From Candidatus Doudnabacteria bacterium (lineage in GTDB: Bacteria > Patescibacteriota > Doudnabacteria > UBA920 > O2-02-FULL-48-8): a stretch of 47,975 nucleotides of DNA. Of this stretch, positions 2,188 through 14,368 are shown one piece after another. The first letter of the stretch is position 1; each line of letters opens with the position of its first letter. The stretch spans positions 1-47,975 of the forward strand of contig JAIFWV010000005.1 in NCBI GenBank assembly GCA_019659055.1, in the 5' to 3' direction. The position numbers and the translations under genes were made by a program. The notes under the pieces are model-generated. The model saw nothing but the letters and a program-made list of their open reading frames with translations, did no database searches and was not told where the DNA came from.

Positions 2188-2802
2188 ATGCAAAGAGATT
2201 ATAAATTGGGTGCGCTGGCAGGGTTTCTCACAGGAATCTGTTTGGTACCGACCGCCTGGAATATTGGCACGATCGGAGGTATCAACTTACAGAATCCGGT
2301 ATTGATTATTATATTGCCTCTTGTCTCACTGGTTGGCATTGTCTTTGGCATCTGGCTTGGCAAGATTTTGGGCCGGGCCATACCAGTCGTCACACAGATT
2401 AGCAAGTTTGCGGCTGTGGGCTTCCTCAATACGGCCATAAACTTCGCCGTGCTCAATATATTGAGTATTATCACCGGCCAGGCTGCTGGGCTTTCGGTGG
2501 GCGAATACAACATCCCCGCCACAGCTGTGGCCGCGACCAATAGTTATTTTTGGAATAAATACTGGGTGTTCAAAGGTGTCAGCCGCGGATCAGCCAGTGA
2601 CCCGGTGAAATTTTTTATCGTAACAGCTATTGGTCTGCTGGCGCGCAGTGGCGTGCTCTACTTTGTGACGACATTTGTCTCGCATGGTGATCTGAGCAAG
2701 ACTGCATGGCTCAATGTCGCCAATGTCTTAGCCACACTCGTTGGGATCATGGTGGATTACCTCGGTTATAAATTTTTGGTGTTTGTTAGAAAAAGTAGGT
2801 AA
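2188..2802 (+). CDS. GtrA family membrane protein
   Basis: KFAAVGFLNTAINFAVLN, NSYFWNKYWVF, LGYKFLVF. Confidence 0.85.
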   Translation: MQRDYKLGALAGFLTGICLVPTAWNIGTIGGINLQNPVLIIILPLVSLVGIVFGIWLGKILGRAIPVVTQISKFAAVGFLNTAINFAVLNILSIITGQAAGLSVGEYNIPATAVAATNSYFWNKYWVFKGVSRGSASDPVKFFIVTAIGLLARSGVLYFVTTFVSHGDLSKTAWLNVANVLATLVGIMVDYLGYKFLVFVRKSR

Positions 2803-2855
2803 CTTGTTTTGCTACCTTTTGTGCAGACGAAAGGTAGCACCGAAATAAAAAAAAT

Positions 2856-2888
2856 AGGCGCGTCGGGTCCCAGTGACCTGACGCGCCT
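2856..2888 (-). terminator. Intrinsic terminator of the minus-strand DUF5715-like gene
   Basis: AGGCGCGTCGGGTC-ccagt-GACCTGACGCGCCT stem with an A-run on its left (U-tract on minus strand). Confidence 0.7.
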
Positions 2889-2899
2889 TTGTGTATTGG

Positions 2900-3664
2900 C
2901 TATTTTTGACCGAGAGAAATCGCGGTCATCTGTTGTTTTACAGTTTCGTAGTAAGCGGCAAGCTCAGCGTGCGCTTGCGGCAGAGCAATCACATGGAAAG
3001 CTGATTGCGGATGGGTCTCCTTGAAGTAGATTGCCACTCCGAGGTTGGTCAGCTCGGCTAAGTAGCTCTCTAGGATTTTTTGCTGTTCGAGTGGCATGCC
3101 CATGCGTGTGATATCGAAGGCCAGGCCAAAGACGTGAGTCGGAGGGACTTTCATCTTGAGGACATTGGCTGTGGGATTGCCGCGCATGAGCCGAAGCTGG
3201 TATTTCCACGAGCGCACGAGACTGGTCACCTCAGAGGACCCTGTGCCCTGCATATGGTCGCAGATGCGGAGCAAGAGTCCAGCGGCGGCCGGCCGCAGAC
3301 CGTAATAGTATCCGCGGTGCGGGAGATCTTTTTCGGCGATGGGCCACTTGCCCGATTTCCGCAGACTCATGCCGCAAATACCGATAATGTCGCTCACATC
3401 CACGAGCTCGTGCCTATCCCAAGCCAGCTTCAGCGCCTTGAAGTCCGCAATCCAGAACTGCTGGCGGACTTGGGGTGTAAAGATTCCCCAGAGCTGAGCT
3501 TTCTTGGTGAGAGTGAGGTACGAGGTGTCGAGCGGTACCGGGGGCGGTGGAGCCAGCGGAAGCTTCACAGCAGTTCCGGGCGGGAGTACCAGGGGAGGAG
3601 GCGATTGTTCAGCCATCCCCTGCAGACCTGCGATTGCAAAAATCGCTGCAAGTAAAACAGCCAT
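2900..3664 (-). CDS. Secreted DUF5715-like protein (Hedgehog/DD-peptidase, M15-like fold)
   Basis: Signal peptide, Pro-rich linker, then LRP..., VTSLVR..YQ.RL..GN, H..G.AFDI, E..QSAFHV; SD GGAGG. Confidence 0.7.
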   Translation of the reverse strand: MAVLLAAIFAIAGLQGMAEQSPPPLVLPPGTAVKLPLAPPPPVPLDTSYLTLTKKAQLWGIFTPQVRQQFWIADFKALKLAWDRHELVDVSDIIGICGMSLRKSGKWPIAEKDLPHRGYYYGLRPAAAGLLLRICDHMQGTGSSEVTSLVRSWKYQLRLMRGNPTANVLKMKVPPTHVFGLAFDITRMGMPLEQQKILESYLAELTNLGVAIYFKETHPQSAFHVIALPQAHAELAAYYETVKQQMTAISLGQK

Positions 3665-3734
3665 AAGGCCTCCATTTTGGTTTTTGTGTCAGGTGCGAAA
3701 ACCGATACTTTCATTCTATGCCTTTCCTATGCTC

Positions 3735-3763
3735 TTTACAAATGCCGGCGTTTAGTGTAATAT
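3735..3763 (+). promoter_or_regulatory. Putative sigma70 promoter
   Basis: TTTACA-N17-TAATAT upstream of small ORF 3796. Confidence 0.45.
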
Positions 3764-3795
3764 GTGCTGTTGGTCAACACACATGAGGAGGATAC

Positions 3796-3954
3796 TTGAG
3801 AAGATTGTTGGAAGAATTGCGAAAGTTGTTTGCGGGCCGTTTCAGCGATCGTCGCGTGACCCGTGAGACGGTCGTGTATTACGATGATCTGGAAAGCCAG
3901 GACATCCTCAGCACGAAGGCAGCGCTTTCGCCCAAGGGCCTGCAGAGACTCTAG
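3796..3954 (+). CDS. Small hypothetical protein, 52 aa (not in ORF track)
   Basis: SD GAGGAGG, TTG start, MRRLLEELRKLFAGRF...; flanked by a promoter and a terminator. Confidence 0.55.
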   Translation: MRRLLEELRKLFAGRFSDRRVTRETVVYYDDLESQDILSTKAALSPKGLQRL

Positions 3955-3984
3955 AGTTCGCCACCCCACCTCTCTCTATTTGCC

Positions 3985-4017
3985 AGGATCCGCTTAAGCC
4001 CGGGTCCTTTTTCTTTT
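3985..4017 (+). terminator. Intrinsic terminator
   Basis: AGGATCCG/CGGGTCCT stem followed by TTTTCTTTT. Confidence 0.7.
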
Positions 4018-4022
4018 GTAAG

Positions 4023-4080
4023 CATTTCGACCGGAGGGAGAAATCCCTCATCAGAGCGATCTCTCACGATGTTCGAGATG
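4023..4080. repeat. REP-like palindrome pair of the type that flanks GIY-YIG genes, here with no gene inside
   Basis: CATTTCGACCGGAGGGAGAAATC...GATCTCTCACGATGTTCGAGATG, mutually inverted arms. Confidence 0.55.
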
Positions 4081-4184
4081 GAAAATAGGCCAAATTCGTA
4101 CTTATCGCATTACACCATAAAGTACGGAAACCTGAGTTTGAGGCTTAGATAAGCCATTATTTAGGCCTACTTTGCCCTTGGCTA

Positions 4185-4226
4185 CTCCGACGTCTTAGTC
4201 GGAGCCCCGACCCGAAAGCGTCGGGG
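4185..4226. repeat. CGTC-type double palindrome
   Basis: CTCCGAC-n6-GTCGGAG abutting CCCCGAC-n8-GTCGGGG. Confidence 0.65.
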
Positions 4227-4255
4227 TTGACACAAACCCCATTTGGGTGTATACT
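4227..4255 (+). promoter_or_regulatory. Strong sigma70 promoter at head of the cassette array
   Basis: TTGACA (4227-4232) - 17 nt - TATACT (4250-4255). Confidence 0.75.
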
Positions 4256-4396
4256 TACTCGTTAACATAAAAGCTTCAAAATTTATGGTAGAAATAGGCT
4301 ATTTCAGGAAATGGCCAAAACCTCACCTTAGATTGCAGTAGTCCGGTTTTGGATTTATTTCCGAAGCCGGACTTTTGTATAGTCACTTTCTAATTA

Positions 4397-4442
4397 TTCT
4401 CGCCCGCTTGCGGGAGAGATGGCCGAAGGCCAGAGAGGGTGG
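4397..4442. repeat. DUF559-type REP, left-arm orientation
   Basis: TTCTCGCCCGCTTGCGGGAGAGATGGCCGAAGGCCAGAGAGGG. Confidence 0.6.
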
Positions 4443-4564
4443 CTTCCAGGATGTTGGGCACTACTGGGTTTAAGAGGGATAAATTCACATTTGCCCATTA
4501 ACTTATCTAGTTAGTACCCAGCATTCTGGAAGCAACGGAAACAATTTTCGAACGGAGGAGTTTG

Positions 4565-4765
4565 ATGAAGAAGTTGACTGGCTGTGCCATCATCATCGTA
4601 TATTACATCGCTTTAGCACTTGTCGTCATTTACGCAAACAGGCACTATCCAGTGACTACAGACGGCGACAAGATGTTGAGAGTTATCTGGACAACGTTCG
4701 GCGTACTGGTTCCGTTCGCGGTGGCTGCCTGGCGTAGTACCCGTTTGGAGCCGCCTCGCCAATAG
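4565..4765 (+). CDS. Small two-TM hypothetical protein
   Basis: SD GGAGGAG then ATG 4565; two hydrophobic segments. Confidence 0.7.
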   Translation: MKKLTGCAIIIVYYIALALVVIYANRHYPVTTDGDKMLRVIWTTFGVLVPFAVAAWRSTRLEPPRQ

Positions 4766-4847
4766 GCGAGTGTTAAGAGGAGCGCGATTAGCTATAAAGG
4801 TTTCGCTCTCTTCTCCACTTCAGAAGTCTTCTCAGGAGGTGCGCAAG

Positions 4848-5027
4848 ATGGCGAAGAAATTCCAAATGAGGGCTCAGGTCACCACTTATGTGGGCGACAA
4901 GCTGGTCACACGGCATGTCGTCTATGTCAACGGCGTCTGGCGCGACAAGGCCGGCGAGATCTACTCGGATCGCTTCGTCGATTTCTGCCGGCGGCAGACC
5001 ACTGCAGCTAAGGCGGCGCGGCGCTAG
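4848..5027 (+). CDS. Small basic hypothetical protein
   Basis: SD AGGAGGT, ATG 4848 (MAKKFQMRAQV...). Confidence 0.7.
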   Translation: MAKKFQMRAQVTTYVGDKLVTRHVVYVNGVWRDKAGEIYSDRFVDFCRRQTTAAKAARR

Positions 5028-5177
5028 GTTCCAGAGGGGAAATAATTAGAATATCTTTTGTTTCCTCTCCACTATTCTGAATACTTAATTGTTGTAACAC
5101 GGATATTACCGTAAAGTTCGCTAAGCATTCAGAGTTGTGGAAGCACTACAGCTTTCCAGGTTTTCAGGAGGAGTTCG

Positions 5178-5684
5178 ATGCAGTTGACAAAAGGCATGTA
5201 TGGACACCAGTTCCGCAACGCAAGCCGCATGTACGGGCTTTCATGCGGACAGATGCGCGGCGACGATATGGTCCATAACGGCGGCTGGTACAATGCTGCC
5301 GGGGAAAAGCTCGGCTGGGGCGACCTGTCTCGCCAGGACTTCGAACGAATTTCGTCCGAAATCGAAGAGGGCGAGATCTTCGTGGTCCTATACGAGGGCG
5401 ACGCGTTCTGGAAGTTCGTTACGCACAATCCTGGAATTATCGGGAGCATGTGCAAGACGAGGCCGGACGCGGAAGCTCCGGGAGTTGATTATGTCGCCCA
5501 GAAAGCGGCATGGATCATCACTCGCGGCAAGGTCTTCCATGTCAGCGACTACAGCGAGAGGCTCGGCCCGGAGACACATCGACGCAACGGCATGGCGTTT
5601 GAGCTGACTAACCGGTCTGCTGCCAATACGCTCATCCGTACCACAGCACTCAGGTACGGGAAGGGCGCAGAAACGATCATGTAA
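5178..5684 (+). CDS. Hypothetical protein (HNGGWYN..GEKLGWGDL motif)
   Basis: SD AGGAGGAG; natural-looking globular sequence; function not recognised. Confidence 0.8.
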   Translation: MQLTKGMYGHQFRNASRMYGLSCGQMRGDDMVHNGGWYNAAGEKLGWGDLSRQDFERISSEIEEGEIFVVLYEGDAFWKFVTHNPGIIGSMCKTRPDAEAPGVDYVAQKAAWIITRGKVFHVSDYSERLGPETHRRNGMAFELTNRSAANTLIRTTALRYGKGAETIM

Positions 5685-5867
5685 GATCAGACCTACCGCA
5701 CAGCTCGATCGAGCAGTGCATGAGTCCCCACTTATAGGCGACAAGCCAAGAGGAGTTGATGCAAATCACTCCTCTCCACCTCAGAAGCCATGAATCGTGA
5801 GACATGAATCGTAAATCGTCTCACGCATCACGCTATACGTATCACAACTTGTGATGTGGAGGCAGAT

Positions 5868-5957
5868 ATGAAGAAACGGCCGCAGAAAATACCGCGCAAG
5901 ATTCCTCGGCCAAAGCGGATACGCATCCAGTCGTACACACTCAGCTGGATCAAATAG
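5868..5957 (+). CDS. 29-aa Lys/Arg/Pro-rich peptide (not in ORF track)
   Basis: SD GGAGG, MKKRPQKIPRKIPRPKRIRIQSYTLSWIK; its stop overlaps the next gene's SD. Confidence 0.5.
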   Translation: MKKRPQKIPRKIPRPKRIRIQSYTLSWIK

Positions 5958-5971
5958 GAGGAGTTCGAAAG

Positions 5972-6292
5972 ATGGCATTTAGCCCCGACCGACAGGAGCG
6001 CCTGCGCCGGATCATCGAAGCACATTTGGACGATGATCCGTGGGACGCAAGCCTTGAGCCCACGAGGAGGAATTCGATGGCCGGATTCGCTAACTACACC
6101 GGCGGGCACATCAGCGACGAGACCTTAGGTTACTACGCTGACGGTCTGCTCACTCCAGACGAATTCGACAAGACTCGCGCGCACATCAAGCATTGCGTAC
6201 CGTGCGAGTGGAAAATGCACAACTACGAGGAATACCTGGATATCGATTCGGCCAAGCGGAAATTCCACTGGACGAATCAGCAGCTATCATAA
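5972..6292 (+). CDS. zf-HC2 (anti-sigma-type zinc finger) domain protein
   Basis: H.S.E.LGYY.DG.L.......AHIKHCVPC = HxxxCxxC motif; SD AGGAGGAG. Confidence 0.75.
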   Translation: MAFSPDRQERLRRIIEAHLDDDPWDASLEPTRRNSMAGFANYTGGHISDETLGYYADGLLTPDEFDKTRAHIKHCVPCEWKMHNYEEYLDIDSAKRKFHWTNQQLS

Positions 6293-6323
6293 CCTTCCGC
6301 ACTGGCGTTCCGCTAGTGCAAAA

Positions 6324-6367
6324 CCCTCTCTGTCGCTTCGCGACATCTCTCCCACAAGGGGAGAGAA
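6324..6367. repeat. DUF559-type REP, right-arm orientation
   Basis: CCCTCTCTGTCGCTTCGCGACATCTCTCCCACAAGGGGAGAGAA; inverse of the 4397-4442 arm. Confidence 0.65.
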
Positions 6368-6397
6368 TAAAGTGAGATGACGATTGGGCCCACCAGT

Positions 6398-6464
6398 CGA
6401 GCAGTCTGCAATATAGATTGCTCGCCCTTCCAAAGAGTTTCAAATCTGGAACTTTGTGGAAGGG
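6398..6464 (+). repeat. Divergent abutting double-hairpin spacer (R0)
   Basis: CGAGCAGTCT/AGATTGCTCG hairpin directly followed by CCCTTCCA-AAGAGTTTCAAATCTGGAACTTTG-TGGAAGGG; inner part resembles R2/R6. Confidence 0.6.
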
Positions 6465-6514
6465 AATAGCAAGAGCACGATAAACCAACACTGTCAGATG
6501 TGAGGAGGTTTGCG

Positions 6515-6718
6515 ATGAGAATGATCGTTGCCGTGAGTGCGCCGGGATTGCCGCCGACACCTCCGTTTGGGGGACTGGAGGGGCATCTGGTCGAAGTCGG
6601 CCAGGTGGACGACACGGTGGAAGCCGGCGTCGTCGCCCTCGAAAAGGTCCAGGCCGAATGGGACCTGCCGACGCCCGTGATGAAGGTTACGGGGTTCCGT
6701 CTCAAGAGCCGCAACTAG
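6515..6718 (+). CDS. Small hypothetical protein
   Basis: SD GAGGAGGT, ATG 6515. Confidence 0.65.
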   Translation: MRMIVAVSAPGLPPTPPFGGLEGHLVEVGQVDDTVEAGVVALEKVQAEWDLPTPVMKVTGFRLKSRN

Positions 6719-6906
6719 TTTCTTTAGGAAAGGATCACTAGCGAAATAGCAAAATGACGTCTTGATCGAGCAGACGGTTCAAATCGATCTGGCTTGCCGG
6801 AACAGCCACATAAAATTGAAAAAATCCGGAATTGTGCGCGTCTACCTGATGGAGGATTACATGTCGCGTATATAACTGCCGCCTGCAAGGGCGCCAGAAC
6901 TGAATA

Positions 6907-6979
6907 GGGGATCTCTCGCCAAGATCCCCACCTTTCTCGAGAGTTTGAGTCGATCCTGATTCCAACTTTCAAGTTTGGT
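6907..6979 (+). repeat. Conserved double-hairpin cassette spacer R1
   Basis: GGGGATCT/AGATCCCC hairpin + core ACCTTTCTCGAG (6930-6941) ... TTCAAGTTTGGT. Confidence 0.85.
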
Positions 6980-7004
6980 AGCCGTTCTTTACAAGGAGAG
7001 TCAA

Positions 7005-7835
7005 GTGAGAAAGACATTGTCAGTAGTCGCGTTGGTTCTTTGCTCGTCGTACGCCGCTGTCGCGCAGGACAAGATTCGGGTTTCCGCAACTGTCGAGACG
7101 ACCACCTCACAAGTGATCAGCTCCTCAGCCAAGAGCGAGAACGCCGGCATCGAGTTCCTGCCGTCGCGCTGGGTCACTTCCCAGCAGATCATGACGATCA
7201 CGACCGCACCCACTAAGAAGCTCAGCGCGGCTGTTCGGTTCAATCTCGCCGGTTCCGCGGAGAATCCGCCGGTCGACCGGGATCCCAAAACTGGGGTCGA
7301 GTACCGCGTGCAAGATCTGCGATCGTACTCGGGCGAGAACCGCTTGTTCGAGGCCTCGGCCGCTTACAAGGTCTGGCGGCAGGTTTCGGCCGTCGGCGGG
7401 TACACAAGACTGTCGCTTGCCGGCAGGTACGAAAATACCATTCCCTACGGCTACTACGACGGGGGATTGGTGACTACCTACTCCGAGAGACAGACGTACC
7501 GGGGCATCGAGCTCGGCGCACGTTCGGATTTTGCGATTCGCGGCCTTACCCTCGAGCCGGAATTTCTGCTCTACCCGCGTATCAGCCGGAACTTCCGTTC
7601 GCACCAGAACTACCTCGGCCATGTCTACGACAACGACATCGACCAGAACACTGGCCGGCGCGTGGGAATGCAGATGAGCGGACGGGCAAAGTATGCTCTG
7701 GTCCGACACCTCGCGGCGACGTTCTCCTACAACCTCCAGGTCATCCGAACCACGAACAAAGTCATGTTCGGCGGTCCGGCGCGGGAGAGCTTAAAGACTC
7801 GCACCGCCATGGTCGGTCTGCAGGTCGGGTTCTAA
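7005..7835 (+). CDS. Secreted protein with outer-membrane beta-barrel features
   Basis: GTG start after SD AAGGAG; signal peptide; alternating amphipathic strands; C-terminal ...VGLQVGF. Confidence 0.65.
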   Translation: MRKTLSVVALVLCSSYAAVAQDKIRVSATVETTTSQVISSSAKSENAGIEFLPSRWVTSQQIMTITTAPTKKLSAAVRFNLAGSAENPPVDRDPKTGVEYRVQDLRSYSGENRLFEASAAYKVWRQVSAVGGYTRLSLAGRYENTIPYGYYDGGLVTTYSERQTYRGIELGARSDFAIRGLTLEPEFLLYPRISRNFRSHQNYLGHVYDNDIDQNTGRRVGMQMSGRAKYALVRHLAATFSYNLQVIRTTNKVMFGGPARESLKTRTAMVGLQVGF

Positions 7836-7879
7836 ACGCTGCTCAAATCGCATTCGTGCGACACGAGCGCGTGGTTTCC

Positions 7880-7955
7880 GACCAGCCCCAGTTTTATTAA
7901 CTGGAGCTGGTCACCTTTCTTGAGAGTTCCAATCAATGGAACTTTCACGATTGGT
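7880..7955 (+). repeat. Conserved double-hairpin cassette spacer R2
   Basis: GACCAGC..CCAG/CTGG..GCTGGTC hairpin + core ACCTTTCTTGAG (7913-7924) ... ATTGGT. Confidence 0.85.
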
Positions 7956-7966
7956 AGGAGGATCAA

Positions 7967-8401
7967 ATGCTTTTTGAACTTTTTGTAGTTGTGCTCGTCA
8001 TGAACGTGCTCGCTCAATTCGCTGCAACGCGCAGCAATCGGACTGAGCGGATCCTCGGAATCGGTGCTGCGATCACCCTTGCATCTCTGTTGGGCGGGGT
8101 AGCCAATTATATGGACGAATCCAGAAAGAGGAGTGCAATAATCGACCAGCTCGACGCTATGACAAACCAGACCGCAGATGTCGTTGCGGTGGAACCCATT
8201 GCCGCCAAGCACTATGTGCTGCTTCGGCACCGCATCCTCGAGATCGACGGCAAGAAGCTGGATCTGGTGATAGGCAAGTACATGCAAATGCAAACCGACC
8301 AGTCCGAGTGGGTTTACGCCCTTCCGCGCTGGGCGGCGTCCGGGCGGATTGTCGACCACGGTTACCCGTACGAAGCGGGGCCTGCTAAAGACTCGCGTTA
8401 G
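7967..8401 (+). CDS. Hypothetical membrane protein (two N-terminal TM segments)
   Basis: SD AGGAGG; hydrophobic N-terminus, soluble C-terminus. Confidence 0.75.
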   Translation: MLFELFVVVLVMNVLAQFAATRSNRTERILGIGAAITLASLLGGVANYMDESRKRSAIIDQLDAMTNQTADVVAVEPIAAKHYVLLRHRILEIDGKKLDLVIGKYMQMQTDQSEWVYALPRWAASGRIVDHGYPYEAGPAKDSR

Positions 8402-8407
8402 CGCCAA

Positions 8408-8490
8408 GTGGAGGCGAATTTCGAAAGATTTCGCTTCCACACCTTTCTTGAGGTTTCGAGTCAATCACGATTCGAGGACTCAAGATTGGT
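8408..8490 (+). repeat. Conserved double-hairpin cassette spacer R3
   Basis: GTGGAGGCGAA/TTCGCTTCCAC hairpin + core ACCTTTCTTGAG (8441-8452) ... CTCAAGATTGGT. Confidence 0.9.
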
Positions 8491-8505
8491 CCGAAGGAGG
8501 AATAC

Positions 8506-8829
8506 ATGCGGAAGATTCTGTTACTAGTTCTTATCTTTGTTTCGGCCTGCACGGCAGCTTCGGGGCCGGATTTCCGCATCAGGTGGGAAACGCAAGCTTA
8601 CGATGGCCCGTTCAAAGCCGTCGTAACTCAGGTCCAGGAGACTCTCGGGTCGATTGTCGCTGTCAACGTGCTAGTCGATCAATCTGAGCGCCGAAAATTC
8701 CAGCAGTTGGCGGCGATTGGTTCAAACCTGAAGATCGCCGATCACGTCACGTGCAGGGTCGGAACTCTAACTAATGGTATGGCCAATGACGTCGTGACTG
8801 TGTGTGTGGCAGCAACCCCGAAACAATAA
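8506..8829 (+). CDS. Putative lipoprotein
   Basis: SD AAGGAGG; MRKILLLVLIFVSAC lipobox-like signal. Confidence 0.7.
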   Translation: MRKILLLVLIFVSACTAASGPDFRIRWETQAYDGPFKAVVTQVQETLGSIVAVNVLVDQSERRKFQQLAAIGSNLKIADHVTCRVGTLTNGMANDVVTVCVAATPKQ

Positions 8830-8836
8830 GCTGTTC

Positions 8837-8919
8837 GTGGAGGCGAATTTCGAAAGATTTCGCTTCCACACCTTTCTTGAGAGTTTGAGTCAATCCTGAT
8901 TCCAACTTTCAAGTTTGGT
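8837..8919 (+). repeat. Conserved double-hairpin cassette spacer R4
   Basis: First 45 nt identical to R3; core 8870-8881; second hairpin nearly identical to R1. Confidence 0.9.
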
Positions 8920-8959
8920 GGCTGTTCTTTCAAGCGCGAGAAGCGCGATGAGGTGTGTG

Positions 8960-9229
8960 ATGGCTATCATGGGCGATGGGGGTTGGATTGTACCGCCTCG
9001 ATTCCCTTTCCCTGAACTTTCGACCGAATGGACTAAGTCCCCGGAACTACGACGGTTTTCGGTTCCAGAGGGGACCATGTACCAGAGAGATGAGTACGCT
9101 CTCTCGAAATTGCAGGCTGTTCTCCCGGTTGGCGATCGGTTGGTGCGAGATTGGCTCAGCGAAGCGAAGACACGCAGGCTTGTCGATGACCACACTCATT
9201 ATTGTCTGCTTTGGTATGCAGATAAATAA
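8960..9229 (+). CDS. Hypothetical protein (start uncertain: 8948/8960/8969)
   Basis: Open frame between spacers R4 and R5; GAGGTG precedes ATG 8960. Confidence 0.55.
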   Translation: MAIMGDGGWIVPPRFPFPELSTEWTKSPELRRFSVPEGTMYQRDEYALSKLQAVLPVGDRLVRDWLSEAKTRRLVDDHTHYCLLWYADK

Positions 9230-9277
9230 CATTGCTCAAATTGCTCATCAAAGAAGCGAAGCGAGCGTGTAATTCCT

Positions 9278-9355
9278 GACCAGTCCCAGTTTGTTAAACT
9301 GGAGCTGGTCACCTTTCTCGAGTCCCGCACATGGTGTGGGGGATTCAAGATCGGA
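9278..9355 (+). repeat. Conserved double-hairpin cassette spacer R5
   Basis: Hairpin 1 homologous to R2; core ACCTTTCTCGAG (9311-9322) ... TTCAAGATCGGA. Confidence 0.85.
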
Positions 9356-9378
9356 AACAGTATGGGAGGATTGGAAAA

Positions 9379-9741
9379 ATGAAGAAGAACTTCGTAATCG
9401 TGGGGCTGTTCTGTTTGTCGGTTGCCAGCTTGAGCTGGAACTTCAGCCAGTACCAGCACACCGGCATGCTGAAGAACGCCGCCGCGCAGTTGTCTACACT
9501 GACGACGCACTCCGAACGCAGCGAGTTCGCGATCGTCATTCCGTTTGAAGACACGCCGGTACTGATGCGCCGTGCTGATGTCGAGATCAATGGTGTGGTC
9601 GAACATCTCGTATGCGGACGCGAAAAGTATGACGCGAACGCCGACGAGAACCGGCTCTGGTTCGACGACAAGCTCGTGGCCAAGCTGGAAACCCCGATGT
9701 CGCAGTTCGGGCTGTACGAGGGCCACAAGCCCAATCGGTAG
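9379..9741 (+). CDS. Exported/membrane-anchored hypothetical protein
   Basis: SD GGGAGG; MKKNFVIVGLFCLSVASLSW signal-like N-terminus. Confidence 0.75.
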   Translation: MKKNFVIVGLFCLSVASLSWNFSQYQHTGMLKNAAAQLSTLTTHSERSEFAIVIPFEDTPVLMRRADVEINGVVEHLVCGREKYDANADENRLWFDDKLVAKLETPMSQFGLYEGHKPNR

Positions 9742-9748
9742 CAGTACG

Positions 9749-9828
9749 GTGGAGGCGAATTTCTGAAAAGATTTCGCTTCCACCCCTTTCTTGAGAGTTT
9801 CAAATTCCTTGGAACTCCGAAGTTTGGG
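9749..9828 (+). repeat. Conserved double-hairpin cassette spacer R6
   Basis: Hairpin 1 as R3/R4 (+2 nt in loop); core CCCTTTCTTGAG (9784-9795) ... AAGTTTGGG (compensatory ACC/GGT to CCC/GGG). Confidence 0.85.
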
Positions 9829-9853
9829 TGTTAGGTTCAACAGGAGGATGCAG

Positions 9854-10717
9854 ATGGACAGAAAGTTCAAAGCGTTGAGTCCGCGTGCTCGGTGGGCAGT
9901 TCGCATCAGTTCCGGCGCAGTTCTCATGAGCCTGTTGCTCATGGGGATGTGCTCCCGGAAAGAGACGCCCCAGCCGAACGTGCCGAACCCTGCTCCGCAG
10001 GCTCATCACGTCGTCCGGCGCGGCGAGTTCCTCAAGTCGATCGCACCGCAGTACCGCAACGTCAGCTGGGAGTCGATCTTGCTGGCCAACGAGCCGTACC
10101 TCAAGGGGAAATACCTCGAGACGTGCGAACCATTCTCGGCATCGTACACCAACAACAGTCGCAGGCGTGGGCTGTTCTGCAACGACCGGTTCCATCGGCC
10201 GTACGGCAACACCCTCAAACCGGGTTGGACGCTCGCCATTCCGGCCGGCACGGCGCCGCAAGACGTCGAACAGACCGTGAAGGACTACACTGATTCCGGC
10301 GACGACGTCTCGATCGTCATCGACGATTCGGGTTCCATGGCTGAGGACCGCCGCACAGTGGCACAGTTCTATCTGGCGGCGCTTCAGAAACATGGGCGCA
10401 ACATCGAAGCAGTCTATCTCTACGTCGACGGGTCGGTGCGTCGGCTCGAAGTCCCCAAAGACATCGAGTCGGAAATGCACACAAGTGGCAACATCGAGAA
10501 TACCTACGAGGCGCTGCGCACCGCGGCTGGTGACCGCCCGGACAAAATCATCCTCATCACGGATGAACCGGGGGATGACTGGCCGGCGGACTTCGGCGGC
10601 ATGAAACTGCCGCCGGTGATCGCGACTTGCCTGGCCGATCACGGCTATCACGCGTGCGAAAGTACGCTCATGAAAGTCGCGAAAGTGACTCATGGGAAAT
10701 ATGTAGCGTACAGGTAA
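9854..10717 (+). CDS. Membrane-anchored LysM-like + VWA domain protein
   Basis: TM, then HVVRRGEFLKSIA...ILLAN...LKPGWTLAIP (LysM-like, with insertion), then IVIDDSGSM (MIDAS) and IILITDE. Confidence 0.75.
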   Translation: MDRKFKALSPRARWAVRISSGAVLMSLLLMGMCSRKETPQPNVPNPAPQAHHVVRRGEFLKSIAPQYRNVSWESILLANEPYLKGKYLETCEPFSASYTNNSRRRGLFCNDRFHRPYGNTLKPGWTLAIPAGTAPQDVEQTVKDYTDSGDDVSIVIDDSGSMAEDRRTVAQFYLAALQKHGRNIEAVYLYVDGSVRRLEVPKDIESEMHTSGNIENTYEALRTAAGDRPDKIILITDEPGDDWPADFGGMKLPPVIATCLADHGYHACESTLMKVAKVTHGKYVAYR

Positions 10718-10730
10718 AGCTTGTTCATAA

Positions 10731-10922
10731 AGGGGAGTGGGATTATCATTATAGATCTCCTGCTCCTCTCTCTACTCCTGGATCGCCAATGCGATGGTAT
10801 TGGGTTCCAGAAGTAGGGCGCTCGGCACTTTGCAAAAGTACCGGCCGTAAATTTCTGCTGAAATTTCGGCCTACTCGCTCGGACCGTCGTCCTGTGCGGG
10901 TTACTTTTGCCAAGTGCCTCGC
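10731..10922 (+). other. Almost fully base-paired spacer: abutting double hairpin plus three-way junction
   Basis: Hairpins ~10731-10769 and 10770-10818; GGCACTT-T-GCAAAAGTA...TACTTTTGC-C-AAGTGCC enclosing two hairpins. Confidence 0.65.
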
Positions 10923-10954
10923 TAAGAATAAAATTGAAGTTCAAGGAGGAGATT

Positions 10955-11128
10955 GTGGTTGAAAAAACTGTCGAGATCCTGGCCACTCACAAGTTGTTGA
11001 TCATGACGCTTTATGTTGGGATCAGTTCGCTGATCCTGCTCGGCTCAGAACCTCGAAGCCTTGTTCGCAGAGCCACCTACGGCATTGCCGCGGCGGTCTG
11101 CATCGCAATCATCGTTTCCAGAATCTGA
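10955..11128 (+). CDS. Small two-TM hypothetical protein
   Basis: SD AAGGAGGAG, GTG 10955. Confidence 0.65.
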   Translation: MVEKTVEILATHKLLIMTLYVGISSLILLGSEPRSLVRRATYGIAAAVCIAIIVSRI

Positions 11129-11137
11129 GAGGACCTC

Positions 11138-11455
11138 ATGCTGACTTTAACTGTAAAGATCGTCGGGGTGTTTCTCCTCGTAGTTCTCGTGGTACTGACT
11201 GTGATCCATCCGTTTCGCTTCCGTAAGGAAGTGGCCGCCCTCAAGGACCTCGTCGATTTGAAGATTCGGGAAATGAACCGCTTGCGCCTGCAATCCGGCG
11301 GTACGTCGTTCCACATGCCGGCAGGCGGCGTCACCGACGACGCCGAGGGGGAGATCAAATCGTACTGCCGCGAAAAGGGGTACGAGATCACCTTCAACCG
11401 CGAGCAGAAGAAGATTAGCCTCGTGAAGATTCCTCAATGGAACCGTCAGAGGTAG
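11138..11455 (+). CDS. Single-TM hypothetical protein
   Basis: GAGG SD; N-terminal TM. Confidence 0.7.
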   Translation: MLTLTVKIVGVFLLVVLVVLTVIHPFRFRKEVAALKDLVDLKIREMNRLRLQSGGTSFHMPAGGVTDDAEGEIKSYCREKGYEITFNREQKKISLVKIPQWNRQR

Positions 11456-11459
11456 CACG

Positions 11460-11529
11460 GAGGAACGAGACCAGTTCTCGTTCCTCTCCATTCTCGCAAG
11501 TTCAAAAAATTTGAGCCTGGGAGAATGGA
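11460..11529 (+). repeat. Divergent abutting double-hairpin spacer
   Basis: GAGGAACGAGA/TCTCGTTCCTC directly followed by TCCATTCTC...GAGAATGGA. Confidence 0.65.
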
Positions 11530-11581
11530 TACAGCTTCGACAAACAAAAAACCCGAGTTCTTTTCAAACTGAGAGGAATAT

Positions 11582-11926
11582 ATGTCATCAAGTGCATACG
11601 CGCGCACAACCATGGTTTTTGTCGGACCGGAACTTCTGGTCTGTCTCAACCCCGATTCTGATCCCAGACGGATGCAAACCGAACTCAACGAAGCCATTCG
11701 GCTTGAAGGTATGAAGGGCGTGAAATTCCGTCGCGGCTCCGAAATGGAAGACCGGATGTATTACTTCTATTTCCGGATCGGTAAGTTCGAATTCCGCTCA
11801 ATAGCGGCCGGAACGGAAGCCGAAAACCTCGAAAGATACGATGCTATGCGGAGGAACTACCAGCAGATTCTCGCCTCAAACGGCGAAATGAAGCTTCGCA
11901 TATTCTTGACAAGACAGGAGGCTTAG
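11582..11926 (+). CDS. Hypothetical protein
   Basis: GAGAGG SD; open frame; function not recognised. Confidence 0.7.
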   Translation: MSSSAYARTTMVFVGPELLVCLNPDSDPRRMQTELNEAIRLEGMKGVKFRRGSEMEDRMYYFYFRIGKFEFRSIAAGTEAENLERYDAMRRNYQQILASNGEMKLRIFLTRQEA

Positions 11927-11927
11927 C

Positions 11928-12188
11928 ATGGATCTGTCGCGAAGATTTATTGTTGCCGCAACCGTGCTGGTCATCTTGCCGGGCTTACCGTGGTTTGACC
12001 CGCACCGAATCGCCGCCAGATTGTTTGGGGAAATGACCCCGGATTATCCGCTGGCGATTGCATTGCTTGGACTGACCGGGGTTATCTTGGCCTTCGCCTT
12101 TGCGGCGGTGGTTGTAGAGTCCAGGGTCAAGGACAAATCACTCGGATATCTCATCGATACGATTGGCGATGAACGAAAGGATGGTTAA
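11928..12188 (+). CDS. Two-TM hypothetical protein
   Basis: SD AGGAGG; two hydrophobic segments. Confidence 0.7.
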   Translation: MDLSRRFIVAATVLVILPGLPWFDPHRIAARLFGEMTPDYPLAIALLGLTGVILAFAFAAVVVESRVKDKSLGYLIDTIGDERKDG

Positions 12189-12650
12189 ATGGGAATTTCT
12201 CTCATGCACCTGACTCCAAACGAGATAGAGATGGCGGCCGAGTTCCAGCTTACCGAAATCTTAGAGAAACATCTCGAGGATTGCGCGCATTGCCGTGCCG
12301 CGCCGGCCGAGTTCCAGCTTACCGAAATCTTAGAGAAACATCTCGAGGATTGCGCGCATTGCCGTGCCGCGCTCAACGATTATGGTCGGCGCCTCCATAG
12401 TATCGACACCAACCCACAGACAGTAGGTTCCAATGGACCCTTGTTCATCTGCCCGCCCAATTGCGGCGGCTGTGGGTTTATCGGTTACGCGCTGGAACTT
12501 GAAAAGTCGCACGACGGCGATCTGCACTGTAAGTGCGGCAAGTATCGGCTTTACCATCTCACAAGGTTTAATTTCGCGTTGTTTTCCGAAGGTCTGGATC
12601 TTCACTCGCTGACCCGCGCGACGGCCATTCTCTGGCCGCGTACCCGTTGA
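12189..12650 (+). CDS. Cys-rich protein with duplicated zf-HC2-like motif
   Basis: HLEDCAHC twice, plus CPPNCGGC and HCKC. Confidence 0.65.
   Translation: MGISLMHLTPNEIEMAAEFQLTEILEKHLEDCAHCRAAPAEFQLTEILEKHLEDCAHCRAALNDYGRRLHSIDTNPQTVGSNGPLFICPPNCGGCGFIGYALELEKSHDGDLHCKCGKYRLYHLTRFNFALFSEGLDLHSLTRATAILWPRTR
12235..12372 (+). repeat. Perfect 69-bp tandem duplication (2 copies)
   Basis: 12235-12303 identical to 12304-12372. Confidence 0.95.
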
Positions 12651-12697
12651 AGTAAATCGCAAGCTTTGGTAGGATATATAGTCAACGGGAGGTCAAC

Positions 12698-12853
12698 ATG
12701 ATACTCGCCGCCGCCTGCGCGGGGATTGGGATTATATTCCTGGTGGTGCCGGAACTGAGTGTCTGGTGCCGGGTCCTGGGAATCGTGTATATAATTCTCG
12801 CGATCGCTACGGCCGTCGCCGCTGTTTCCGAAGCAAAAAGAGGAGGACGTTAG
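12698..12853 (+). CDS. 51-aa two-TM protein (not in ORF track)
   Basis: SD GGGAGGT; MILAAACAGIGIIFLVVPELSVWCRVLGIVYIILAIATAVAAVSEAKRGGR. Confidence 0.6.
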   Translation: MILAAACAGIGIIFLVVPELSVWCRVLGIVYIILAIATAVAAVSEAKRGGR

Positions 12854-12863
12854 CACAAGAAGA

Positions 12864-12982
12864 GAGAGTGGGCAGTTAAAATTGCTCACTCTCACTCGAT
12901 TTGTTTCCATGTACCTGCCGACGAATCTGATATTTCGTTTACGAAATGTCGGATCTCCTGTTCGTCGGCAGATATATGGAAA
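12864..12982. repeat. Hairpin pair closing the island
   Basis: GAGAGTGGGCAGT/ATTGCTCACTCTC and long TTTCCAT..CTGCCGACGAA...TTCGTCGGCAG..ATGGAAA stem. Confidence 0.6.
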
Positions 12983-13064
12983 TTTTGGGACTTGTTTTAA
13001 TCCCGAATTTATGTTATAAATTATTGGTCTTAATTTTAGTTTTCAGTAATTAGAAAGGCAAGCA

Positions 13065-13259
13065 ATGGGAGTCCCCAAAAAACATAAGACCCGGTCGGGC
13101 CGGAACCAACGACGTTCGCACGATCATCTTTCTAAATCCAATCTTTCTGTTTGCAGTAACTGTAAGTTTCCGGTGCGGCCGCATGAAGCCTGCCAGAACT
13201 GCGGCTTCTACAAAGGCAAGCAGGTACTTAAGATCAAAGCAAAGACGAAAGCCAAATAA
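13065..13259 (+). CDS. rpmF: 50S ribosomal protein L32
   Basis: MGVPKKHKT...RRSH...CSNC...PHEACQNCGFYKGK. Confidence 0.97.
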   Translation: MGVPKKHKTRSGRNQRRSHDHLSKSNLSVCSNCKFPVRPHEACQNCGFYKGKQVLKIKAKTKAK

Positions 13260-13366
13260 GAATTGACCTAATTACTCTAATTGATCTAATTTCTAAACGA
13301 GATCATTGGGGCGATTGGGTTATTTTTTAGGTCAATTAGAAATTAGTTATTAGAAATTTTCCGGAT

Positions 13367-13852
13367 ATGGCCAACAGGCATCTTTCAAGAACTATTGCTA
13401 TGCAATCCCTCTATGAGTGGGATTTCAACGACCGCACAGGCGACCTTGAGGAAATTACCAAGGTCAACGTCAAACAATTCGCTCCGGGATTGGAAGATCC
13501 TGAGTTTATTTATAATTTGGTTTCCGGTGTCCGGGAGCATATCCAAGATATAGACAAGATCATCGTGGCCACGGCGCCTGAGTGGCCGCTGGAGCAGATT
13601 ACCGTGATTGACCGGAATATTTTGCGCATTGGAATTTACGAACTTAAGTTTGCCAAAGAAGTTCCGCCAAAGGTGGCGATCAACGAGGCGGTGGAGCTGG
13701 GCAAAGCGTTTGGCGGCGAGTCATCCGGAAAATTCGTAAATGGAGTCTTGGGTACACTCTATAAAAACCTCCCGGAGGCTGAGAAAGAAAAAGGGGAAAA
13801 ACAGGAACCAGAAAACAGTAAACAGGAATCAGAAAAAACAAGCGGCGAGTAG
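13367..13852 (+). CDS. nusB: Transcription antitermination factor NusB
   Basis: [42 protein letters not shown]. Confidence 0.97.
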
Positions 13853-13932
13853 CCGCTTTTTTATATCCACAGCCTGTGGATTTGTCAATCATTTGCTTGC
13901 GCTATATAGTTTGGGTAATTCGGCTCAGGGTT

Positions 13933-14287
13933 TCTCCTCTCCTCTCAGGAGAGGGCAGGGAGAGGTGAAAATGCAAATCGAACCAAAGTTATTAAAATAT
14001 TCAAAGAACTTAAGGCAAAATCGCAATCCGTGGGAAGCTAAGCTTTGGTATTACTTGCGCGCTCACAGGTTTTATGGGTTAAAGTTTAAAAGACAATTCG
14101 TAATAGGAGGTTATATTGTAGATTTTTATTGTCATGATAGAAAATTGGTCATTGAGCTCGATGGTGGTCAGCACTCACAAGCTCGAAGGTATGATTCTGC
14201 TAGAGATCGTTATCTCATTGAGAAGGGGAATAAGGTTCTGAGATTTTGGAATAATGACGTAGACCACCCTCTCCTGGAAGGAGAGGG
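13933..14287. mobile_element. REP-flanked DUF559 module
   Basis: CCTCTCCT/AGGAGAGG-type palindrome at 13933-13966 and CCCTCTCC-tggaa-GGAGAGGG at 14267-14287. Confidence 0.6.
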
Positions 14288-14327
14288 AATACCAAGACCA
14301 CAATCAAATTCGATTCGTATTTATTAA
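13971..14327 (+). CDS. DUF559 (Vsr-like) endonuclease, C-terminus possibly damaged
   Basis: LRQN...EAKLWYYLR, FKRQ..IG.YIVDFYC, IELDGGQH, VLRFWNNDV; frame runs straight into the downstream palindrome. Confidence 0.85.
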   Translation: MQIEPKLLKYSKNLRQNRNPWEAKLWYYLRAHRFYGLKFKRQFVIGGYIVDFYCHDRKLVIELDGGQHSQARRYDSARDRYLIEKGNKVLRFWNNDVDHPLLEGEGIPRPQSNSIRIY

Positions 14328-14368
14328 TAATAATTAAAAAGCTGAACAGGACAGCGCCCGAGGATCTT

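Follow-up and report, generated by a model that had tools for sequence, protein, structure and literature searches.

Two-hairpin modules between the genes of a hypervariable small-gene array in a chromosome of the candidate phyla radiation

Introduction

In the early operon of phage T7, cleavage by RNase III gives the message upstream a stabilising 3' hairpin, and in the operons of enterobacteria the repetitive extragenic palindromes and bacterial interspersed mosaic elements (REP/BIME), which are transcribed and often paired intergenic palindromes lying 3' of cistrons, protect the mRNA upstream of them from 3' exonucleases and promote rearrangements. The hyperplastic regions of T4-type phages carry promoter-early stem-loop (PeSL) motifs, in which a terminator stem-loop is combined with an early promoter (PMC2839356, PMC4122927), and the attC sites of integrons are defined as a single imperfect hairpin of 57-141 bp with the cores RYYYAAC...GTTRRRY, of which AAC and GTT are conserved (PMC5027507). 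Here we report on modules of two abutting hairpins in a 47,975-nt stretch of contig JAIFWV010000005.1 from a Candidatus Doudnabacteria assembly (hereafter, the window), where they separate the genes of a lineage-specific, hypervariable small-gene array situated between a conserved promoter-leader and rpmF in a Saccharibacteria-like chromosome of the candidate phyla radiation (CPR, or Patescibacteria). A first-pass annotation of this stretch, made from its letters alone, had noticed the hairpins and had taken the genes for older cassettes read from a promoter like the Pc of integrons, with post-transcriptional tuning of each gene. That observation proved to be correct and statistically robust; the integron-flavoured interpretation is unsupported by our analysis, and the post-transcriptional one is the better fit.

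CPR bacteria, the Saccharibacteria included, are reduced and host-dependent, their gene regulation and genome innovation are little understood, and a full-text search of the literature found no description of such arrays in them. Of the systems already known, the PeSL of T4-type phages comes closest to the modules. In each case a short composite regulatory motif recurs among small ORFans of a hypervariable, co-oriented region, both come as families of copies in which indels, replacements and mosaics break within the motif, and for both a joint service in expression and in shuffling by homologous recombination is proposed. They differ in that the array modules are two abutting hairpins with no recognisable promoter, and in that the array sits at a fixed locus of a CPR chromosome, from head promoter to rpmF, and not in a phage; there is no sequence similarity between the two. 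REP/BIME, which like the modules are intergenic palindromes placed 3' of cistrons, are found genome-wide and in both orientations, with GTAG and a REP-associated tyrosine transposase (RAYT), whereas the modules belong to one array, in one orientation, with no RAYT. The resemblance to the RNase III hairpins of T7 is structural only, both being hairpins with an internal loop between cistrons (a 3x3 loop in hairpin 2 of the six conserved copies described below), and the stems of the array are shorter, its element is bipartite, and the sequences are unrelated.

We interpret the modules, tentatively and at slightly less than an even chance, as bipartite RNA elements of the sense strand, which punctuate a mostly polycistronic hypervariable array and double as recombination substrates.

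Abutting hairpins in the spacers

The array contains 18 open reading frames (ORFs) between 4565 and 12853, each preceded by a Shine-Dalgarno (SD) sequence, nearly always of the AGGAGG type, and every one on the + strand; about 19 genes had been counted before, a figure that has to be lowered by one, while their common strand stands. Because four of the intergenic gaps measure 14 nt or less, the double hairpins bound about 13 units and not 18. Four further loci were reached through homologues of the 287-aa gene (9854-10717) and of the 168-aa gene (5178-5684), and are referred to here as L001, L214 (with L172), L007 and L217 (Table 1).

Spacers of at least 40 nt were searched with a hairpin-only nearest-neighbour dynamic programme for two hairpins of no more than -10 kcal/mol and -0.3 kcal/nt each, with a gap of no more than 2 nt. 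An abutting compact pair was present in 11 of the 14 array spacers of the window, compared to 0.59 +/- 0.69 (maximum 3) in 200 dinucleotide shuffles, and in 25/31 spacers of the relatives, compared to 2.8 +/- 1.25 in shuffles; the z-scores of whole-spacer minimum free energy (MFE) were mostly between -3 and -9. In true core-genome spacers of the window the pattern is rare, most of the control matches being tRNAs or missed coding regions. Both comparisons had been called for by the first-pass annotation, and the zero-gap pairs it had listed in the sequence-divergent spacers were recovered with boundaries that agree within a few bases. Its description of the pair at 4775-4841 as looser also holds, hairpin 2 of that module (4776-4841) reaching only -5.6 kcal/mol; looser as well is the module at 5749-5862, which is branched, its two hairpins overlapping by 3 nt.

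The compact-hairpin criterion was chosen over exterior-loop parsing of the whole-spacer MFE, which loses pairs nested in weak outer helices. RNALfold local minima were set aside because subsumed hairpins are lost and sloppy long structures admitted, and so was an unrestricted hairpin dynamic programme, with which shuffles reach low energy through long irregular stems. In the spacer 10718-10954 the compact criterion picked an overlapping alternative pair (10770-10818 / 10820-10922), and the pair given in Table 1 comes from other folding runs.

Conservation of the stems and the favoured strand

A covariance model of 28 base pairs, built solely from the six conserved copies of the window, gave full-length matches on the + strand in two further window spacers (11453-11552 and 6392-6483) and in the relatives, where L001 has six of them, L214 seven and L007 one. 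The 39 kb of core sequence in the window and four ordinary, non-array CPR loci yielded none. Matches on the + strand scored 80-110 bits, as opposed to 13-21 bits for the reverse strand. In the model alignment 91.9% of the cells are paired (67.6% when shuffled), compensatory changes on both sides are seen in 27/28 modelled pairs, and the covariation score is 0.451, compared to 0.142 for the shuffles, 0/500 of which reach that value, and to 0.05-0.10 for slid partners; as the alignment was fitted to the model, these pairing figures lean towards structure, but the margin is large. The earlier remark that structure is kept where sequence diverges is therefore borne out, and the divergent spacers do share one structural grammar and recur as sequence families in the relatives. 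The 28-bp model could be used to find such arrays in metagenomes.

Folding of the two strands is not symmetric. The sense strand is the more stable one in 35/44 spacers, the two strands differing by -7.2 kcal/mol on average (Wilcoxon p=1.8e-5). Lower z-scores favour it as well (p=4e-4), and G-U pairs make up 302/2582 pairs on the + strand as opposed to 194/2436 on the - strand. Better folding of the sense strand points to selection on the transcript, and is the opposite of the bottom-strand preference of attC; the post-transcriptional role suggested in the first-pass annotation fits this asymmetry.

The same data bear on the idea that the modules are selfish palindromic repeats, of the REP/BIME kind or similar to miniature inverted-repeat transposable elements (MITE), lodged in a poorly constrained region and without function for the host genes. 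There are indeed families with near-identical copies inside one array, modules occur in tandem, and a 42-nt insertion of two hairpins at 4184-4226 is absent from L214. Selfish repeats, however, would hardly keep so strict a position, past the stop codon and before the SD, always on one strand, nor would compensatory evolution be expected to maintain both of their stems across diverged genomes. In addition, no copies were found outside arrays in ~115 kb of CPR sequence, no RAYT, transposase or target-site duplication was seen, and the REP hallmark GTAG is not visible at the 5' ends of the hairpins, all of which makes this explanation quite unlikely in our opinion.

Anatomy of the module

Hairpin 1 is a near-perfect, GC-rich stem of 9-14 bp, free in sequence (at least three unrelated versions exist among the six conserved copies), which starts about 6-13 nt past the stop codon, the median distance being 11.5 nt. 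It abuts a pyrimidine tract, (A/C)CC(Y)TTCT, with C or T at 6.9 of 8 nt, which is also the 5' base of hairpin 2. Hairpin 2 is conserved at its base, which is rich in purines on the 3' side, and variable at its top. Its six conserved copies read ACC-TTT-CTYGAG...variable...CTCAAG-WTY-GGT, and are built of an outer helix of 3 bp, a U-rich internal loop (3x3) and a further helix of 8-13 bp; two more hairpin families, CTCTCCAC-TATTCTGAA...TTCAGAGTT-GTGGAAG and CCCTTCY...RGAAGGGAAT, follow the same layout. The centre of hairpin 2 measures from ~20 to >100 nt and is often of low complexity. From the end of hairpin 2 to the start codon there is a median of 36 nt (range 10-50 nt), and the SD is usually left free. 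This position, 11.5 nt past one stop codon and 36 nt before the next start codon, together with the pyrimidine tail, fits an RNA role.

The first-pass annotation had seen hairpin 2 pair with the next SD in two cases, and we find the SD inside the closing helix of hairpin 2 in the same two spacers (4776-4841 and 5749-5862). The hypothesis that hairpin 2 generally hides the SD was tested and is true of these two only, so that, with a median distance of 36 nt to the start codon, SD occlusion by hairpin 2 is the exception.

Variable gene content and mosaic spacers

In the three loci where it could be seen (window, L001 and L214) the end of the array lies immediately upstream of rpmF-nusB, and the two loci with a preserved head have the head promoter in common. 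Between these ends the gene sets are largely different. The genes common to the window, L214, L001 and L007 are few, namely those for the 168-aa, 276-aa and 287-aa proteins, a 29-32-aa basic mini-protein, zf-HC2 proteins and a 190-aa signal-peptide protein, and the order of shared genes partly differs between loci. The spacers have been reshuffled as well. Window positions 10724-10780 (hairpin 1 and its 5' flank) match L214 12259-12316, which lies 3' of an unrelated gene; a 5' untranslated region (UTR) homologous to the module 5749-5862, GTGGAGGCAGATATG, precedes a different ORF in L172/L214; and homology between spacers stops at the stop and start codons of unrelated ORFs. For gene 5178, the segment shared with L214 spans from the SD to 7 nt past the stop codon, and for gene 7005 it starts ~10 nt upstream of hairpin 1, takes in hairpin 2, the 5'UTR and the ORF with a tail of 45 nt, and ends at the next hairpin 1.

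Within the window, the spacer 8837-8919 is a mosaic, with a hairpin 1 that is 100% identical to 8408-8440 and a hairpin 2 that shares 96% identity with 6930-6979, the conserved ACCTTTCT forming the junction; by sequence comparison, the two hairpins assort independently there. Also, 'empty' tandem units of two or three double hairpins with no gene occur in the window (6295-6464), in L001 (269-481) and in L007 (3505-3855). As described for the PeSL motifs of T4-type phages (PMC2839356, PMC4122927), mosaics, empty tandems and reshuffled spacers are what repeated regulatory motifs show when they undergo homologous recombination or gene conversion with one another, and because the modules form few repeat families with a conserved junction, they would be recombination substrates too. 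A chimeric assembly was ruled out, as the same architecture is found in independent assemblies from NCBI, JGI and Logan. As for a phage origin, megablast against a phage collection returned nothing, and a motif scan of IMG/VR only chance-level single matches with no hairpin 1. The motif scan of genome contigs gave mostly chance matches, with one true relative among the matches listed, and the metagenome scan with the 168-aa protein a single 2.7-kb contig.

Comparison with integrons

Integrons and clusters of attC sites lacking integrases (CALIN; PMC5027507) share with this locus the co-oriented, mostly promoterless ORFans behind a head promoter, a structured site with conserved ends and variable centre after each gene, and a variable gene content at a fixed platform, in a composition unlike that of the host. 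One could then propose that hairpin 2 is an analogue of attC, read as folded single-stranded DNA by a recombinase encoded elsewhere, with the ORFs as cassettes expressed from the head promoter. In favour of this are the complementary conserved ends of hairpin 2 (CCTTTCTYGAG / CTCAAGWTYGG), with their 3x3 internal loop and the length-variable centre, which resemble attC's unpaired central spacer (UCS) and variable terminal structure (VTS), although no conserved extrahelical bases are apparent from the alignment and consensus structure; the empty tandem modules; the differing and reordered gene sets that relatives have at this fixed chromosomal site; and the foreign composition of the ORFs, where G+C at third codon positions (GC3) is 0.67-0.74 compared to 0.53 in the core.

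Several hallmarks of integrons, however, are missing. No tyrosine, serine or HUH recombinase, and hence no IntI, was found in the 48-kb window, by Pfam on ORFs of at least roughly 100 aa and on the array genes, or in the 17 kb of L214, by precomputed Pfam matches. RYYYAAC...GTTRRRY at attC spacing occurs in 0/88 spacer-strands of the five loci, where 0.7 would be expected by chance, and there is no AAC triplet; the six conserved copies end in GTTTGGT, GATTGGT, GATCGGA or GTTTGGG, none of which fits GTTRRRY. Each unit has two hairpins and not one, and it is the top strand that folds better, not the bottom one. Cassette boundaries are not fixed, considering that the segments of genes 5178 and 7005 shared with L214 end at different landmarks and that some units consist of 2-4 tightly coupled genes. 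Finally, two of the array genes have homologues that stand alone in other CPR genomes, as ordinary single genes each with a promoter of its own. We therefore consider the integron-like explanation unlikely, and the analogy implied by the words 'older cassettes' and 'Pc-like' is not supported.

A related proposal at the DNA level is that of a new CPR/Saccharibacteria platform for gene capture, functionally convergent with integrons and fixed between the head promoter-leader and rpmF, in which GC-rich ORFs would be inserted, exchanged and lost at the junction of hairpins 1 and 2, or at hairpin 2's conserved base, through a recombinase or nuclease whose gene lies elsewhere. We would call this a long shot; if true, it would supply these epibionts with rapidly renewable small surface or secreted proteins, and sites of recombination of this sort would amount to a new kind of gene-capture system.

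Transcription of the array

The near-consensus head promoter of the first-pass annotation is present at 4227-4255 and is the top-scoring site of a promoter scan of 2800-14500. In L214 the -10 region and flank are 93% identical, the promoter lying at 7878-7906. That this is the one promoter of the array agrees with the finding that promoter-like sites within the arrays are no commoner than in shuffles, with 11 compared to 7.8 in the window region and 7 compared to 7.3 in L214. The only other good promoter-like site of the window array, TTGCCA-16-TAAAAT at 10907-10934, is found in the 3' arm of the hairpin 10820-10922, ahead of gene 10955.

Terminators give a similar picture. Tails of hairpin 1 with at least 5 T in 8 nt are 8/30, and tails beginning with a T-run 2/30; a terminator scan called none of the window's hairpins 1, and did call four canonical T-run terminators beside the array. 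Just two hairpins count as intrinsic terminators, that of the leader (4340-4373) and the terminal one (12895-12989), after which comes TTTT. The module 12864-12989 is the probable end of the transcription unit, and all three loci that extend as far as rpmF conserve the long hairpin in front of it. In ordinary genes of the relatives, host-type promoters and T-run terminators are readily recognised, and both are absent from the array spacers; in other CPR genomes, in fact, the homologues of the 168-aa and 287-aa proteins are encoded by single genes with TTGACA/TGnTATAAT-type promoters and T-run terminators, which means that the hairpin grammar belongs to the arrays and not to the genes. Chance-level promoters, non-canonical hairpins 1 and the TTTT at the terminal hairpin, taken together, make a single long transcription unit the simplest reading, and the two-hairpin module appears to stand in for the usual promoter and terminator punctuation. 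Searches of Rfam, at gathering and E-value thresholds, recognised no known RNA family in the array.

The genes might nevertheless be separate transcription units, if hairpin 1 were a U-poor intrinsic terminator and hairpin 2 carried or overlapped a promoter invisible to a sigma-70 scan, for instance that of an alternative sigma factor. A strong GC-rich hairpin 1 right past the stop codon and followed by a pyrimidine tract, a -35-like TTGAGA that the six conserved copies have in the 5' arm of hairpin 2, and the zf-HC2 (anti-sigma-like) proteins encoded by the arrays would suit such an arrangement. Yet TTGAGA is missing in the other hairpin-2 families, a -10-like element at constant spacing is lacking (hairpin 2 having a centre so variable in length), promoter-like sites are at chance level, and T-rich tails are few where bona fide host terminators have T-runs. 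On balance, independent transcription of each unit seems improbable to us.

Regulated read-through is the other way in which expression could be graded. Through processive antitermination or attenuation, the leader, made up of the promoter, an RNA of roughly 80 nt and the terminator, would load a factor, and each hairpin 1 would be a conditional terminator that grades expression along the array. A terminator-like stem does follow every unit, and the window and L214 have kept the same succession of promoter, terminator and structured leader, with a terminator and a long hairpin arranged similarly at both heads, a CCGGTTTTGG...CCGG element with T-run in L214 that is similar to the window's 4340-4381, and a leader motif, ...ATTCTGGAAGYAA, that L214 also conserves. 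The put RNA of phage HK022, too, has an architecture of two closely spaced stem-loops. Against this mechanism, no known antiterminator RNA or protein was found with Rfam and Pfam, and the stretch from promoter to terminator shows no sequence conservation when the window is compared with L214, where the terminator sits ~740 nt further from the promoter; we hold regulated read-through to be very unlikely. The element at 4340-4381 had no match in Rfam, and may be a leader attenuator, or else mark where a small RNA gene ends (~120 nt, window 4256-4381).

A role for the modules in RNA and recombination

If the modules are sense-strand RNA elements, as we tentatively propose, the array would be transcribed largely as one unit, with the modules as punctuation. 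Hairpin 1 could act as a protector of the 3' end, or as a leaky, U-poor terminator, for the upstream cistron, and hairpin 2 as a stem near the 5' end that insulates or stabilises the downstream cistron, the SD being occluded in two spacers. The zero gap would permit coaxial stacking, and a cut of the RNA at the junction would leave both products sealed. At the same time, the modules could be substrates of homologous recombination or gene conversion by which hairpin 1, hairpin 2 and genes are reassorted, giving a plastic array. As signals of RNA processing or stability they would provide a first view of operon punctuation in the phylum, plus a compact natural insulator.

Several points weigh against this proposal. 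A strong terminator stands ~80 nt past the head promoter, so the simple read-through from a Pc-like promoter that had been assumed is not assured; transcription must enter the array conditionally, or else begin at a start that went unrecognised, and the head promoter may chiefly produce a small RNA. Hairpin 2 is conserved in primary sequence at its base (CCTTTCTYGAG...CTCAAGWTYGG), and this implies that it has a sequence-specific partner, which could be a protein acting on DNA. G-T pairs are tolerated in single-stranded DNA too, and the strand bias is hence compatible with a role of the top strand as single-stranded DNA. The strong GC3 richness of the ORFs, and not of the spacers, is left unexplained by an RNA model; continuing import from a GC-richer pool, biased gene conversion and codon selection are candidate causes. 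Lastly, polycistronic transcription, processing (cleavage) or stabilisation of RNA, and the part played in recombination are all steps that we infer from the architecture.

Genes of the array and their products

The features of the array, its head and its relatives are listed in Table 1.

Table 1. Array features with their window positions, and the four related loci
Feature	Position	Strand	Remarks
Head promoter TTGACA-N17-TATACT	4227-4255	+	TG precedes the -10; 11/12 consensus positions
Intrinsic-terminator-like element	4340-4381	+	Hairpin 4340-4373, then T-run TTTTGTAT; ~80 nt downstream of the head promoter
Structured leader	4397-4536	+	Two short hairpins, then a long hairpin (arms 4439-4463 / 4512-4536); stops just 5' of the first gene's SD
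Array ORFs 1-6	4565-4765, 4848-5027, 5178-5684, 5868-5957, 5972-6292, 6515-6718	+	Called from SD and start codon
Array ORFs 7-12	7005-7835, 7967-8401, 8506-8829, 8960-9229, 9379-9741, 9854-10717	+	Called from SD and start codon
Array ORFs 13-18	10955-11128, 11138-11455, 11582-11926, 11928-12188, 12189-12650, 12698-12853	+	Called from SD and start codon
Loose module	4776-4841	+	Hairpin 1 4776-4814 (-15.6 kcal/mol); weak hairpin 2 4816-4841 (-5.6 kcal/mol) holds the next gene's SD
Module of family 'CTCTCCAC TATTCTGAA...TTCAGAGTT GTGGAAG'	5036-5141	+	Hairpins 5036-5067 / 5068-5141; same family at L214 9156-9260
Branched module	5749-5862	+	Hairpin 1 5749-5775; hairpin-2 domain 5773-5862 closed by TCTCCAC/GTGGAGG, including the SD of the gene at 5868
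Tandem modules, no gene between	6295-6464	+	6295-6323/6324-6388 and 6398-6424/6425-6464
Conserved non-coding stretch	6740-6906	+	~250 nt to 6990; ahead of module 6907-6979; homologous to L214 13951-14232, at another place in the array
Four-codon mini-ORF	6861-6875	+	Strong SD 6851-6855; ATG-TCG-CGT-ATA-TAA (M-S-R-I-stop)
Conserved-copy module	6907-6979	+	Hairpins 6907-6929 / 6930-6979 (ACC TTT CTYGAG...CTCAAG WTT GGT)
Conserved-copy module	7880-7955	+	Hairpins 7880-7912 / 7913-7955; SD directly next
Conserved-copy module	8408-8490	+	Hairpins 8408-8440 / 8441-8490
Conserved-copy module (mosaic)	8837-8919	+	Hairpins 8837-8869 / 8870-8919
Conserved-copy module	9277-9354	+	Hairpins 9277-9311 / 9312-9354
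Conserved-copy module	9748-9828	+	Hairpins 9748-9784 / 9785-9828
Module and third long hairpin	10731-10922	+	Hairpins 10731-10769 / 10772-10816; third 10820-10922
Module	11460-11529	+	Hairpins 11460-11486 / 11487-11529; covariance model 11453-11552, E=1.4e-8
Terminal module	12864-12989	+	Hairpin 1 12864-12893; long hairpin 12895-12989, then TTTT
rpmF (ribosomal protein L32)	13065-13259	+	Pfam Ribosomal_L32p, E=5e-20; right-hand anchor, same position in L001 and L214
L001 (Logan)			Nine small + strand ORFs, then rpmF-nusB-LTD-SpoIIM (LTD, Lamin-tail domain)
L214/L172 (NCBI 'Candidatus Saccharibacteria' metagenome-assembled genome)			Closest named relative with the locus; GroES-GroEL, same head promoter, >20 small + strand ORFs, rpmF-nusB
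L007 (JGI)			Ten co-oriented ORFans
L217 (JGI, more distant)			Short array; zero-gap grammar in another sequence family

The second of the tandem modules, 6398-6464, belongs to the family 'CCCTTCY...RGAAGGGAATAGC', which is abundant in L214, and it is the module covered by the covariance-model match at 6392-6483. The mini-ORF in the conserved non-coding stretch has a counterpart in L214 (14136-14165), which reads M-P-R-I-stop. Directly downstream of the short array of L217, at 12021-13439, is a reverse transcriptase (RVT_1, 472 aa).

Pfam gave only weak zf-HC2 and LysM matches for the array ORFs, and PHROGs and PADLOC gave none, so that the description of the region as a co-oriented and essentially ORFan array can be upheld; a defence island, for which PADLOC yielded nothing, was rejected. 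Composition sets the ORFs apart from what surrounds them. GC3 ranges per ORF from 0.52 to 0.81 and exceeds G+C at second codon positions in all 18, and across the four arrays the ORFs have a GC3 of 0.67-0.74 and a G+C of 0.56-0.58, the G+C of the spacers being 0.46-0.51. Hydrophobic segments are frequent: an N-terminal one is found in 10/18 array ORFs of the window, and among 57 array proteins 32 have such a segment, the first one lying no more than 25 residues from the N-terminus in 31 of those 32, which suggests, from sequence, that many of the products are small membrane-anchored or exported proteins. A conserved chromosomal site with fast turnover of small, compositionally distinct proteins, apparently for the most part membrane or secreted ones, would be a plausible source of host-interaction factors.

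The 168-aa protein (5178-5684) belongs to a family of at least 86 homologues, of which the few with source names are labelled Patescibacteria or Peregrinibacteria. Its AlphaFold model has a mean predicted local distance difference test (pLDDT) score of 89 and a predicted template modelling (pTM) score of 0.86, and a search of the PDB with it gave no structural match (best E=0.9); on the strength of the model, the fold may be new, and structure thus offers no clue to function. The homologue search with the 276-aa protein returned the window itself only. In the gene 12189-12650, a perfect tandem duplication of 69 nt at 12235-12372 is in frame and doubles 23 aa, including a zf-HC2-like HxxxCxxC motif, which suggests a very recent event.

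Surroundings of the array

Outside the feature the G+C of the window is ~0.46; it rises to 0.54 in the array (4565-12853) and also in 2900-4080. The genes of this chromosomal stretch include PilB, PilC, PilM and PilN of a type IV pilus, proteins with Lamin-tail and SpoIIM domains, NusB, L32, HolA, HU and four tRNAs.

Compared to L214, the head of the window array bears a GC-rich insertion (4184-4226) immediately 5' of the -35 hexamer, which consists of exactly two abutting and mutually similar hairpins, CTCCGAC..GTCGGAG and CCCCGAC..GTCGGGG. The hairpin CCGAC...GTCGG was considered as a repeat family of the window and rejected, since it has 4 matches, 2 of them nested in this insertion, with ~0.9 expected by chance. 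To the left of the head, a minus-strand gene at 2900-3664 has a weak match to DUF5715 and a motif similar to SxHxxGxAxD, THVFGLAFD, which suggests a LAS-type cell-wall peptidase, and a possible small gene on the + strand at ~3796-3997 has its own promoter-like site and a terminator at 3985-4008; both genes are missing from the L214 head.

On the other side, 3' of rpmF, there are AT-rich, low-complexity palindromic stretches in the window (13260-13360) and in L001 (4824-4890), with repeats such as TAATTAG/TAGAAAT and GTAGGT/TACAAC. Stretches of this type also fill many of the variable hairpin-2 centres in L214 and L007, and they may be a lineage-specific kind of terminator or a spacer filler.

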